Sequence record: MW882907
Direction: 5' to 3' (one strand)
Length of the DNA: 64,000 nt
From: Escherichia phage vB_EcoM_SQ17
In this document: positions 28,039-32,093 of the stretch, piece after piece
Layout of the letters: the number at the start of each line of letters is the position of its first letter
Position numbering within the stretch: the stretch's first letter is position 1
The notes under the pieces: generated by a model
Databases searched by the model: none
Seen by the model: the letters and a program-made list of their open reading frames with translations, nothing else
Told to the model about the DNA's origin: nothing
Program-made: the position numbers and the translations under genes

Positions 28039-28347
28039 TTACATAAGAAGCAAACTTTCCACCGGAGTACCATCAACCGAAATTACTTTATCAAGGCGGA
28101 AAGAACGCCACTGACCTAACTTGGTGTCGAATGCTCGAACTGATTCACGAGGTTCATAACGAACTTCTGTTGCTGGATTGTTATTTTCATATTTGACTTC
28201 AAGTTCATCGCGCGAAGCAAACATAGTGCGTACCTCGCCGTTAGCCTTTTCAAATACAACACAATGAACGCCTACAGACAGAATAGTTTTAATACGTTCA
28301 CGAAGAACCATAGTTTCTTGTTCAGTTAAAATCATATTATTCACCAC
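28039..28347 (-). CDS. Hypothetical protein (T4 31.1-like position)
   Basis: 102-aa ORF between gene 31 and cd. Confidence 0.5.
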   Translation of the reverse strand: MVNNMILTEQETMVLRERIKTILSVGVHCVVFEKANGEVRTMFASRDELEVKYENNNPATEVRYEPRESVRAFDTKLGQWRSFRLDKVISVDGTPVESLLLM

Positions 28348-28918
28348 AAAAGTTTCGGATTTGTTCCCAATTCAGAGAACGAAGATTATTACGAGAGTAC
28401 TGAATTACTTCAATACCGGCTTGTTTTAGAATGTCTGCCCAATTTTCAGGAGATCGATCGTATAATTCTGCGTATACAACCTTTTTAATACCTGACTGAG
28501 TAATAGCTTTAGTGCAATCAGGACATGGAGAAAGCGTCGTATATAACGTAGCACCTTCAATAGAATTACCTTTACGAGCTGCAAACAAAATTGCATTCAA
28601 TTCTGCATGGATTTCATTATTAGCAGACCATGCACTATGAGCGGCCCGATGTTCTTTAGCCAAAACAAAATTATCTGCCCGTCCAAATGCTGTAGTGCCT
28701 TCTTTATGTCCAGCAACGATGACCGGGCTTGGTTTATTCTTCAACCAACCATTTTCGGATGCATGTTCACAACAGTTAACGCCACCTGCTGGTGAGCCAT
28801 TATATCCAGTAGAGATAATGCGTCCATCTTTTTCAATGACGGCACCAACTTTCCATGAACAACATTTTGATTCTTGAGAAATCAGATATGCAATCTGAAG
28901 GTATGTGCTAGCTTTCAT
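28337..28918 (-). CDS. cd: dCMP deaminase
   Basis: 193 aa; zinc-binding HAELNAI and PCxxC motifs. Confidence 0.9.
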   Translation of the reverse strand: MKASTYLQIAYLISQESKCCSWKVGAVIEKDGRIISTGYNGSPAGGVNCCEHASENGWLKNKPSPVIVAGHKEGTTAFGRADNFVLAKEHRAAHSAWSANNEIHAELNAILFAARKGNSIEGATLYTTLSPCPDCTKAITQSGIKKVVYAELYDRSPENWADILKQAGIEVIQYSRNNLRSLNWEQIRNFCGE

Positions 28919-29910
28919 TATTGAACCTTATTAATATAAGTTAACAGCTCTTTAGTTTGTTCCCAACTGATGCACGCATCGGTAACGGAAACGCCATAGG
29001 ACATATTATCAGAAATTTTTTGATTTCCTTCATGTAGGAATGATTCTATCATAATTCCTTTGACCAAATCATTAGCTGCTAAATTTTTACCAATACCAAT
29101 TTGATTGCTATAATACCCATCAGCGTTTGCATGGCTACAGTCAACCATTACATAATGATTCAGACCTACTGCCCTTGCTTTGTTAGAAGCTTCTTGAATA
29201 TCAGAAGAATGATAGTTCGGGCCGTTAGTCCCGCCACGCAATACGATATGCGTATTCTGATTACCTTCAGCTTCAACAATGCCTACAGTACCATCGACGT
29301 CCATACCCATATACCGATGAGGCCAGGCGGCACTATACATCGCGTCTGTAGCTACTTTAATAGAACCATTGGTTGCGTTCTTGAAGCCTACGCACATCGG
29401 TAGACCTGAAGCAATTTCACGATGTGTCTGACTTTCAGTCGTACGGGCGCCAATAGCAACCCATGAGAAAATACCAGAAAGATACTTAATCGTGAATGGG
29501 TCTAATACTTCAGTTGCTAATGGAAGTCCCATACGTAGAAGTTTACGACACAATGTTCGTGCAACTATAAGACCGTGGTTCATATCAAAACTTCCGTCAA
29601 GATATGGATCATTTACAAGACCTTTCCAACCTACGGTAGTTCGAGGCTTTTCAAAATAAACGCGCATCACTAACAGAACATTAGGAAGATGAGTTTGAAG
29701 TTCAGCCAGACGTTTGCCGTATTCAACAGCAGCAATAGGGTCATGAATTGAACAAGGACCTACAACAATAAGTTTGCGTGGGTCTTCACCATTCATAATC
29801 GAATTAACTTGTTCGCGATGAGAAGCCACTTGTGATGCGTAAGCTTCCGACAAAGGAATAATCTCAGCCAGTTCTTTTGGAGAAATAAGTTTTCTGATGA
29901 CAGGTAACAT
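28918..29910 (-). CDS. 3-deoxy-D-arabino-heptulosonate 7-phosphate (DAHP) synthase, class I AroG/AroF/AroH type
   Basis: 330 aa; LIVVGPCSIHD, VYFEKPRTTVGWKGL, AIGARTTESQ(T)HRE, SHAN, ESFLHEGNQ and SVTDACI motifs are all present. Confidence 0.85.
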   Translation of the reverse strand: MLPVIRKLISPKELAEIIPLSEAYASQVASHREQVNSIMNGEDPRKLIVVGPCSIHDPIAAVEYGKRLAELQTHLPNVLLVMRVYFEKPRTTVGWKGLVNDPYLDGSFDMNHGLIVARTLCRKLLRMGLPLATEVLDPFTIKYLSGIFSWVAIGARTTESQTHREIASGLPMCVGFKNATNGSIKVATDAMYSAAWPHRYMGMDVDGTVGIVEAEGNQNTHIVLRGGTNGPNYHSSDIQEASNKARAVGLNHYVMVDCSHANADGYYSNQIGIGKNLAANDLVKGIMIESFLHEGNQKISDNMSYGVSVTDACISWEQTKELLTYINKVQ

Positions 29911-30030
29911 AACAATCCTTAGGAGATATAAACAGATTCTGATTCAACAATACCTTTAACCGGATTAGACAGGCTAAGTTGGTAGTGCTCAGATTTATGA
30001 CCATTCTCGATAGTAATGAGATAGCTCTCA

Positions 30031-30267
30031 TTATAGTGTTCCATATACTCGAGTTGCTTCAACAAGACCATCACTGCCTAATTTAAGATTAGTAATTTGG
30101 TCACCATCTTTAGGATTAACGATTATGAGAAAAGAACGTGGAGATTCTTGAATAACTCGTAATGTTGCATCTTGGAAACGTTCAGACACTTTATTGATGA
30201 GTGCTTGAGCAAATTCTTTTACTTTAATCTGAAATTCGTGTACTGTAATTGGGTTTTCACTTAGCAT
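30031..30267 (-). CDS. Hypothetical small protein (cd.x-like)
   Basis: 78-aa ORF preceded by an early-promoter motif. Confidence 0.4.
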   Translation of the reverse strand: MLSENPITVHEFQIKVKEFAQALINKVSERFQDATLRVIQESPRSFLIIVNPKDGDQITNLKLGSDGLVEATRVYGTL

Positions 30268-30327
30268 TTCTATTTCCTCATTTGTTGGTAGAGTTATAGT
30301 ATCACAACTCCACCATGTTGTAAACCA

Positions 30328-30603
30328 TTAAATTGCTTTGCATTCAATTTTTTGTGTACCGAAATTGATATCACATTGGATAACTAAATCACCGTCAAGA
30401 TCAAATACCACTATGACGTGTGCAGACCCAGGGAGAAGAGTAATAGCAATAGAATCTACTTGGTCTGGGAGCAAAGCATTGAGTACATGAGTTAGTTGAG
30501 CATGAACTCTGAGTTCGGCTGCATTATCAAGCACTTCAAACATATTATTAGCAATAATCTGACTGAAGACTACCTTTACAATTTCAGAATAAGTTGGGAA
30601 CAT
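30328..30603 (-). CDS. Hypothetical small protein (cd.x-like)
   Basis: 91-aa ORF. Confidence 0.4.
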   Translation of the reverse strand: MFPTYSEIVKVVFSQIIANNMFEVLDNAAELRVHAQLTHVLNALLPDQVDSIAITLLPGSAHVIVVFDLDGDLVIQCDINFGTQKIECKAI

Positions 30604-30835: not shown

Positions 30836-31006
30836 TTAACCATTCAATTGCCTGGTCGACGTTATCAAATATACAGCCGTCCAAACGTTCTTCATGCTCA
30901 TAGTCCAGCACATCAATACCGAACTGTCCATTTACTAAAGGCCAGGCTACAAACAAATATTCTTTATGCTGTTCGATGGCCTCAATCACTTCATATAATC
31001 GTTTCA

Positions 31007-31007
<1 letters not shown>
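30816..31007 (-). CDS. Hypothetical small protein (cd.x-like)
   Basis: 63-aa ORF. Confidence 0.4.

Positions 31008-32093
<1,086 letters not shown>

Follow-up and report, generated by a model that had tools for sequence, protein, structure and literature searches.

The stretch of DNA analysed here, hereafter the window, comprises 64,000 nucleotides of Escherichia phage vB_EcoM_SQ17 (sequence record MW882907), an RB69-like phage of the genus Mosigvirus, and shows 96-98% nucleotide identity to the Mosigvirus phages TH58, DCP548, JS09, HX01, F2, and others. Between cd and pseT it carries a gene for a class I-alpha DAHP synthase (DAHP, the 7-phosphate of 3-deoxy-D-arabino-heptulosonate), an enzyme at the entry of the shikimate pathway. 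An open reading frame (ORF) of 330 amino acids (aa) at exactly 28918-29910 had been proposed in an earlier note on this DNA, made from the sequence alone; it lies on the minus strand, and its location between cd and pseT is borne out by the Pfam identification of both flanking genes (Table 1). On this strand the order is pseT, four small ORFs equivalent to cd.4, RB69 ORF227, cd.3, and cd.2, then the DAHP synthase gene and cd, which is followed downstream by the genes for a WYL_2 protein (gp31.1), gp31 (Cpn10), and rIII. The statement in the same note that T4 has only small ORFs in this slot was correct, as the pseT-cd interval of T4 holds only cd.1-cd.5. The ORF list of the window contains no in-frame start codon farther upstream of the DAHP synthase ORF and, therefore, its short N-terminus is real and cannot be extended.

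Table 1. Features at and around the DAHP synthase gene (positions counted from the first nucleotide of the window).
Feature	Position	Strand	Evidence and remarks
cd, dCMP deaminase	28337..28918	-	Pfam dCMP_cyt_deam_1, E=1.5e-26; directly downstream of the DAHP synthase gene, 1-base overlap
Right imperfect direct repeat ATAATGAAAGCTA	28909..28921	-	contains the TAATG overlap
DAHP synthase coding sequence, class I-alpha, EC 2.5.1.54	28918..29910	-	330 aa, ATG start; profile and alignment
Cassette, 1113 bp (cd.2 fragment and DAHP synthase)	28919..30031	-	present in the window, absent from RB69 and mar005P1
Shine-Dalgarno sequence AAGGA	29916..29920	-	5 nt upstream of the DAHP synthase ATG; read from the sequence
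41-aa ORF (MEHYNESYLITIENGHKSEHYQLSLSNPVKGIVESESVYIS)	29919..30044	-	homologous to the C-terminal half of cd.2; left-end scar
Left imperfect direct repeat ATAATGAgAGCTA	30022..30034	-	cassette boundary; mimics the cd.2-stop/cd-start junction
cd.2 homolog (DUF7320 / phrog_1504)	30031..30267	-	adjoins the cassette on the upstream side
T4-early-type promoter-like site, gTTTACA-17-TACTAT with TG	30296..30324	-	nearest upstream; consensus match only
pseT, polynucleotide kinase/phosphatase	31007..31906	-	Pfam HAD_PNKP, E=3e-58, and AAA_33; upstream limit of the interval

Judged by profile searches and alignments, the product of this gene is a class I-alpha DAHP synthase of the AroF/G/H type that is full-length and has kept its catalytic apparatus intact. 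Pfam family PF00793 (DAHP_synth_1) matches with E=7.7e-75 and 251.7 bits (cutoff 25.5) over profile positions 8-269 of 270, and the protein scores above the cutoffs of the NCBIfam models TIGR00034 (aroFGH; 426.5 bits, cutoff 173.2) and NF009395 (a subfamily model; 454.4 bits, cutoff 343). It scores below those of the AroG-specific model NF006723 (363.2 bits, cutoff 568) and the AroH-specific model NF009396 (385.2 bits, cutoff 463), and no AroF-specific model occurs among its NCBIfam matches. The closest solved structure is that of Escherichia coli AroF (6AGM; E=8e-105, residues 8-327 against AroF 17-344), and identities to the E. coli K-12 enzymes are 51% for AroF, 47% for AroG, and 44% for AroH (alignment A1). 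The profile search and alignment that the earlier note had called for thus yield strong family matches and no metal-ligand substitution. All of the DAHP synthase motifs that it quoted are present in the translation, i.e., LIVVGPCSIHD, YFEKPRTTVGWKGL, GARTTESQTHRE, SHAN, EGNQ (twice), and TDACI, and it was also right in reading the four metal-ligand positions and the KPRT lysine as intact. The ligands C53, H260, E289, and D311 align with AroG C61, H268, E302, and D326 and are invariant in all 52 aligned phage and bacterial sequences, and the KPRT motif, with K88 as its lysine, occupies positions 88-91. The residues binding phosphoenolpyruvate (PEP) and erythrose-4-phosphate (E4P), i.e., R83, K88-P89-R90-T91, G154-A155-R156, K177, and R225 (R92, K97, G163-R165, K186, and R234 in AroG), are conserved, all 10 being invariant across the phage and bacterial sequences examined.

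The N-terminus is, as had been estimated, 8 residues shorter than that of AroG, and 9 and 7 residues shorter than those of AroF and AroH, respectively. The C-terminal tail, for which a shortening of about 10 residues relative to AroG had been given, is in fact 5 residues shorter; the total deficit of 20 residues also includes internal indels of -1, +1, -5, and -2 (alignment A1). Structure prediction, a further check named at the time, provided a confident DAHP synthase fold. The AlphaFold2 model, based on a 52-sequence alignment, has a predicted local distance difference test (pLDDT) of 92.5 and a predicted template modelling score (pTM) of 0.92, with the flexible KPRTTVGW loop as its sole weak segment, and consists of a (beta/alpha)8 barrel with an N-terminal helical extension and a beta6a/6b insertion. 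Foldseek superimposes it on the solved structures 4HSO, 1GG1, and 1KFL from N. meningitidis and E. coli with a template modelling (TM) score of 0.96 and a root-mean-square deviation of 1.4 A. We rejected an assignment as 3-deoxy-D-manno-octulosonate 8-phosphate (KDO8P) synthase, since all significant NCBIfam and PDB matches are DAHP synthases and KPRTT is present; KDO8P synthases, related enzymes of family PF00793 that use arabinose-5-phosphate, carry their own type of substrate motif in place of KPRT.

The phage enzymes differ from the bacterial ones in the region of the inhibitor site. In all phage copies 46-50 residues precede the GPCS motif, compared to 56-93 in bacterial homologs, and equivalents of AroG D6, D7, and I10 and of AroF N8 and I11 are lacking. 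When clade-specific fixed differences are defined as positions where at least 90% of the phage sequences share one residue and at least 80% of the bacterial group another, nine are found. Eight of these lie around the inhibitor site and are, numbered as in AroG, P150->I, Q151->K, D155->G, L156->I, L175->I, S180->P, F209->Y, and T223->A. The remodelled positions in the window copy are I141, K142, G146, I147, I166, P171, and Y200. At the positions of AroG P150, Q151, L175, S180, and F209, the residues I141, K142, I166, P171, and Y200 recur in each of the eight phage copies in alignment A1 and, for alignment A3, in 17 of 18 clade sequences, the exception being P0023, which keeps Pro at the P150 position. 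Bacterial and metagenomic homologs at 50-54% identity keep P, Q, S/T, and F at these inhibitor positions, and the phage enzymes do not retain the conserved inhibitor-binding residues of the feedback-regulated AroF/AroG/AroH equivalogs. P0023 (L094/L095; from crustacean and other metagenomes) forms the deepest branch of the clade and has a T4-like context; its signature, in which Pro at AroG-150 is combined with Lys at 151, Pro at 180, and Tyr at 209, is intermediate and may record the order of the allosteric changes.

In AroG, the substitutions P150L, S180F, L175D, and F209A/S confer feedback resistance, the side chains of Q151 and S180 contact the main chain of the inhibitor, and D155 forms a stabilising salt bridge (PMC9529685). 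Q166K in yeast ARO4 is listed as feedback-resistant and engineering of the N-terminal domain is cited as a route to resistance (PMC5879953). By numbering offset, i.e., not by direct alignment, Aro4 Q166 corresponds to AroG Q151 and to K142 of the phage enzyme, where the same Gln-to-Lys change is found. The short N-terminus and the replaced inhibitor-contact residues lend support to the hint in the earlier note that feedback inhibition could be altered. In contrast to AroF, AroG, and AroH of the host, the phage DAHP synthase probably escapes inhibition by any of Tyr, Phe, and Trp.

The same residues bear on whether the gene may be, in effect, a phage copy of the Tyr-sensitive AroF, i.e., an ordinary feedback-regulated isozyme that would merely add to enzyme dosage. 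We consider this unlikely, because the Q151 and S180 contacts and the P150, L175, and F209 hot-spots are replaced (apart from the Pro of P0023), the N-terminal cap is missing, the scores fall under the curated cutoffs for AroG and AroH (363<568 and 385<463), and in the tree the clade lies outside that of the enterobacterial AroF enzymes, even though E. coli AroF, at 51% identity, is the best solved match and many GenBank records use the AroF label. Gly202 also corresponds to the Gly of the Tyr-type enzymes (AroF G212) and not to the Ser of the Phe-type (AroG S211), and the beta6a/6b hairpin region is kept in the predicted model, which would suit a Tyr-regulated enzyme.

Sequence conservation indicates that the former inhibitor pocket is rebuilt and held fixed and is not decaying. 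The segment 131-150 is near-invariant in the phage clade (mean entropy 0.06-0.25 vs. 0.76-0.79 in the bacterial group), at a similar overall diversity of both groups (within-group distance 0.53 for phages and 0.60 for bacteria). Such a frozen pocket fits an enzyme locked in its active state and leaves room for a new ligand or partner. [quoted passage not shown] The near-invariance of the segment across phage genera that are otherwise 56-77% identical, a conservation higher than in bacteria of comparable diversity, would agree with this, as would the replacement residues, among them a Lys and a Tyr hydroxyl, which are fixed and do not drift. However, this segment borders on both the catalytic GARTTESQTHRE loop and the dimer interface, and the constraint could therefore be structural, e.g., by locking the active conformation. 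We regard such a new regulatory role as quite unlikely and favour an enzyme that is free of feedback control.

Using tblastn, the gene was detected in 212 phage records, 139 of which (at >=95% identity) are from Mosigvirus; the remaining records (58-77%) are from phages of Enterobacter, Edwardsiella, Erwinia, Serratia, Klebsiella, Proteus, and Providencia, and from EcS1. Most of the 212 records label it phospho-2-dehydro-3-deoxyheptonate aldolase, DAHP synthase, AroF, or AroG. In PHROGs it belongs to phrog_5045 (E=4.4e-182, residues 1-330), in the category "moron, auxiliary metabolic gene and host takeover." Olsen et al. listed the Mosigvirus DAHP synthase among suggested auxiliary metabolic genes (AMGs) with an unknown role, the phiC120 genome paper noted a DAHP synthase domain, and a 2025 paper proposed a role as an aromatic-amino-acid AMG for the homolog of Kanagawavirus KLB31. 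The gene itself is, therefore, already known, i.e., annotated, catalogued, and discussed as a candidate AMG. The earlier claim of a phage DAHP synthase at this locus thus stands with respect to identity and slot but is not a new discovery, and the AMG label that came with it is reasonable in view of the phrog_5045 category and the literature.

The 18 closest homologs (56-100% identity, 319-343 aa) are monophyletic with a bootstrap support of 100/100, stand apart from all sampled bacterial class I-alpha enzymes, and are not nested in the enterobacterial AroF. The nearest homologs outside this clade, at 50-55% identity, come from scattered phyla. DAHP synthase homologs also occur, at 41-47% identity, on dozens of metagenome-assembled contigs of putative giant viruses (IMG/VR GVMAG; loci L030-L087). 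All clade members with visible context are from T4-like genomes, where they lie between cd on one side and pseT, or a kinase resembling it, on the other wherever both are identifiable; this was confirmed for Marfa, CHI14, PM2, two IMG/VR genomes, and the contig of P0020, and at least seven T4-like lineages have this locus in common. The P0023 contig has a kinase with weak similarity to pseT upstream of the gene, and cd was not identified there. Between genera, the identity of the DAHP synthase follows that of the flanking genes, with values of 66% in Marfa (cd 79, pseT 66, gp31 65), 67% in CHI14 (cd 70, pseT 58, gp31 66), and 58% in PM2 (cd 65, pseT 46, gp31 44). The G+C content at third codon positions (GC3) is phage-like at 0.29, compared to 0.50-0.57 for E. 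coli aroFGH. Monophyly, fixed locus, tracking identities, and GC3 together imply a long residence of the gene in T4-like phages and, by these comparisons, the phage DAHP synthases are a T4-like lineage of long standing. A recent capture from E. coli, or contamination, was rejected because GC3 and phylogeny argue against it; a blastn search of 5,426 E. coli genomes returned only a 120-bp match of 74% identity, to aroG.

Within Mosigvirus the history of the gene appears to be different. RB69 and mar005P1 lack the DAHP synthase and their cd.2 stop overlaps the cd start (TAATG); it is exactly at this junction that the insert of the window is placed, and the cassette is present in ca. 139 of the roughly 150 records from Mosigvirus. 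The first 126 nt of the insert are the 41-aa ORF, which matches phrog_15876 (E=2e-32) and positions 44-76 of phrog_1504, and which JS09, KMB38, and LF82-35 label as hypothetical, the last with a longer start (153 nt). Its identity is 51% to the cd.2 tail of the Enterobacter-phage-like L015 vs. 26% to the cd.2 of the window itself. Both L015 and Edwardsiella phage PEi20 (L016) have a complete cd.2 homolog directly ahead of a 77%-identical DAHP synthase, which is followed by cd. From the affinity of the cd.2 fragment to L015 and this donor-like gene order, we infer that the Mosigvirus cassette was imported from a Karamvirus/Kanagawavirus-like relative, with breakpoints in the donor cd.2 and in the conserved 5' end of cd. 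A 55-aa ORF (29864-30031, minus strand), whose ATG overlaps the cd.2 stop and which imitates the first codons of cd (ATGAGAGCT vs. ATGAAAGCT), overlaps the DAHP synthase start in another frame and is probably non-coding, a by-product of the junction duplication.

Divergence was compared over window positions 28900-30300 with flanks and the loci L011, L012, and L091-L093. The mean pairwise synonymous divergence (dS) among six Mosigviruses is 0.019 for the DAHP synthase and thus lower than for any of the eight other genes of the locus, which range from 0.05 to 1.09 (cd 0.23, pseT 0.21), and divergence climbs sharply at the start of cd. The low-divergence block also takes in cd.2, and the region is mosaic; a young or imported cassette is, therefore, likely but not proven, and a recent sweep of the cassette is plausible. 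Hypervariable patches with 20-44% nucleotide divergence among Mosigviruses that are otherwise ~97% identical occur at 30300-30600 (cd.3, with a dS of about 1.1) and 31000-31300 (the 3' part of pseT) and represent allele replacements typical of T4-like mosaicism. The annotated dCMP deaminase of RB69 (L005 9743-10252) has 169 aa, compared to 193 aa in the window and, by the length of its coding sequence, in T4; this is either an internal length difference or a difference in annotation.

With respect to expression, the DAHP synthase gene has a good Shine-Dalgarno sequence (Table 1). The TAA stop of the 41-aa ORF (29921-29919) overlaps the first two bases of the AAGGA motif, base 29921 preceding the motif, and the stop codon of the DAHP synthase (28920-28918) shares one base with the start codon of cd (28918-28916), a TAATG overlap which suggests translational coupling of the two genes. 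The promoter-like site listed in Table 1 is a candidate promoter for a transcript of cd.2, the 41-aa ORF, the DAHP synthase gene, and cd. Scans for sigma-70 promoters and terminators gave counts no higher than in shuffled sequence and this early-promoter assignment is, therefore, only a lead. The T4 late-promoter motif TATAAATA is absent from the minus strand between 27649 and 43563, which includes 13 kb upstream of the gene, and late expression was rejected on this ground. In the whole window this motif occurs 15 times, compared to 6.9 expected, mostly on the plus strand in the first 18 kb, where it points to a late-gene block. The DAHP synthase gene shares its strand with pseT and cd, both early/middle genes, and expression in the pre-replicative phase together with these genes is likely.

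Taken together, we consider it fairly probable that the gene encodes a catalytically competent class I-alpha DAHP synthase that is made pre-replicatively with cd, is free of feedback control, and sustains shikimate flux in the infected cell. The family, the intact active site, the predicted fold, the remodelled allosteric residues, the locus, the monophyly, and the cassette history are shown above; enzymatic activity, loss of feedback inhibition, expression timing, and a benefit to the phage are inferred. The phage enzyme would condense PEP and E4P to DAHP and would be synthesized in the pre-replicative phase, alongside cd. In an infected cell, host genes are no longer transcribed and the host isozymes are still feedback-controlled; an enzyme that escapes inhibition by Tyr, Phe, and Trp could keep carbon flowing into the shikimate pathway, towards aromatic amino acids and other chorismate products.

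Several observations weigh against this proposal. At three out of four positions the phage residue differs from that of the laboratory alleles (P->I and not P->L, S->P and not S->F, F->Y and not F->A/S), which makes feedback resistance an extrapolation, and the pocket is conserved beyond what simple loss of regulation would require and may retain some function. The part of the first ~10 residues in capping the inhibitor is based partly on the AroG-Phe structure and on the AroF mutants N8K and delta-I11, for which the literature search gave no confirmation. This full-text search also returned no biochemical, genetic, or expression evidence on any phage DAHP synthase. Furthermore, one enzyme alone may not raise the flux if downstream host enzymes are limiting. 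RB69 and mar005P1 live without the gene, which must, therefore, be dispensable at least under laboratory conditions, and its ratio of non-synonymous to synonymous divergence (dN/dS) within Mosigvirus is 0.39, compared to 0.02 for cd and 0.17 for pseT, although few substitutions are involved and the ratio is still below 1.

The last two observations could also be taken to indicate that the gene is a neutral or decaying passenger, or that it stems from the host or from a mis-assembly, but we consider this highly improbable. Intact copies occur in 212 records, 139 of them at >=95% identity, all catalytic residues are conserved from genus to genus, the composition is phage-like, the locus is shared by at least seven T4-like lineages, and no E. 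coli genome offers more than the 120-bp weak match; conservation, composition, and synteny effectively refute both possibilities. The catalytic residues, invariant across a clade that reaches down to 56% identity, together with the phage-like GC3 and a dN/dS below 1, argue for a maintained function.

This function could, in principle, lie in sugar-phosphate metabolism. Mosigviruses arabinosylate their cytosines and carry the gene of an arabinose-5-phosphate isomerase (PMC13326640), so that the DAHP synthase might serve as an irreversible E4P sink that pulls on the non-oxidative pentose-phosphate pathway, or might use arabinose-5-phosphate as a substrate. The isomerase is also found in DAHP synthase-positive EcS1, CHI14, Enterobacter phages, vB_SdyM_006, and Proteus phiP4-3, but RB69 and mar005P1, which have no DAHP synthase, arabinosylate or carry the isomerase, the isomerase alone is found in the Yersinia phages and in about 55 Acinetobacter phages, and ca. 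22 Klebsiella phages have the DAHP synthase only (25 with a DAHP synthase, at most 3 with the isomerase). The two genes are also about 100 kb apart in RB69-type genomes, and the E4P-binding KPRT motif is intact and not of the KDO8P synthase type, which makes such a link very unlikely. As a primary role we rejected it, since the occurrence of the DAHP synthase overlaps with that of the RB69 arabinose-5-phosphate isomerase but is uncoupled from it in both directions. Neither the paper on arabinosylation (PMC6024577) nor that on glycosylated 5-hydroxycytosine (PMC13326640) mentions the DAHP synthase gene. The isomerase (RB69 L004 9964-10599, in the cytosine-arabinosylation cluster) and the DAHP synthase are shared by several T4-like genera, probably through shared ancestry.

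The gene call alone changes nothing, as databases and papers already list the gene as a candidate AMG of Mosigvirus and related genera. What is added here is the probable feedback insensitivity of the whole phage lineage and the likely recent import of the cassette into Mosigvirus. If the proposed role is correct, the phage would override end-product control by the host at a committed biosynthetic step, which goes beyond supplying extra copies of an enzyme. It would also provide a ready-made deregulated enzyme for the bioproduction of aromatic compounds, where feedback-resistant (fbr) alleles of aroG and aroF are standard tools. Moreover, JS09-type phages with the gene and RB69 without it would constitute a natural presence/absence pair within one genus for testing when the supply of aromatic amino acids limits the yield of T4-like phages.

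Compared to known systems, the phage enzyme belongs to the same family as E. coli AroF (6AGM/6AGL), AroG (1KFL, 1GG1), and AroH, with which it shares the predicted fold, the metal ligands, and the PEP/E4P residues, but from which it differs by several short loop deletions. The slot immediately upstream of cd is taken in T4 by cd.1, an unrelated 112-aa ORF of unknown function, and is empty in RB69. Other T4-like DAHP synthases (JS09_0232, those of HX01, Shf125875 ["AroG"], Edwardsiella phages PEi20 and PEi26, Klebsiella phages Marfa and KLB31, Serratia phage CHI14, and Proteus phage PM2) are orthologous, with identities of 98-99% within Mosigvirus and 58-77% for other genera, the same pseT-cd interval, and the same allosteric signature. 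Relative to five other Mosigviruses the window copy has a private H74 (R in the others) and Y266 (H or C in the others) and is otherwise not distinctive; neither His74 nor Tyr266 is a catalytic or allosteric-signature position. A parallel is provided by the feedback-resistant laboratory alleles, i.e., AroG P150L, S180F, L175D, and F209A/S, AroF P148L, ARO4 Q166K, and N-terminal-domain variants, since the same positions are altered in the phage clade. Most of the replacement residues differ, and in the phages the changes are natural, multiple, fixed, and joined to an N-terminal truncation.

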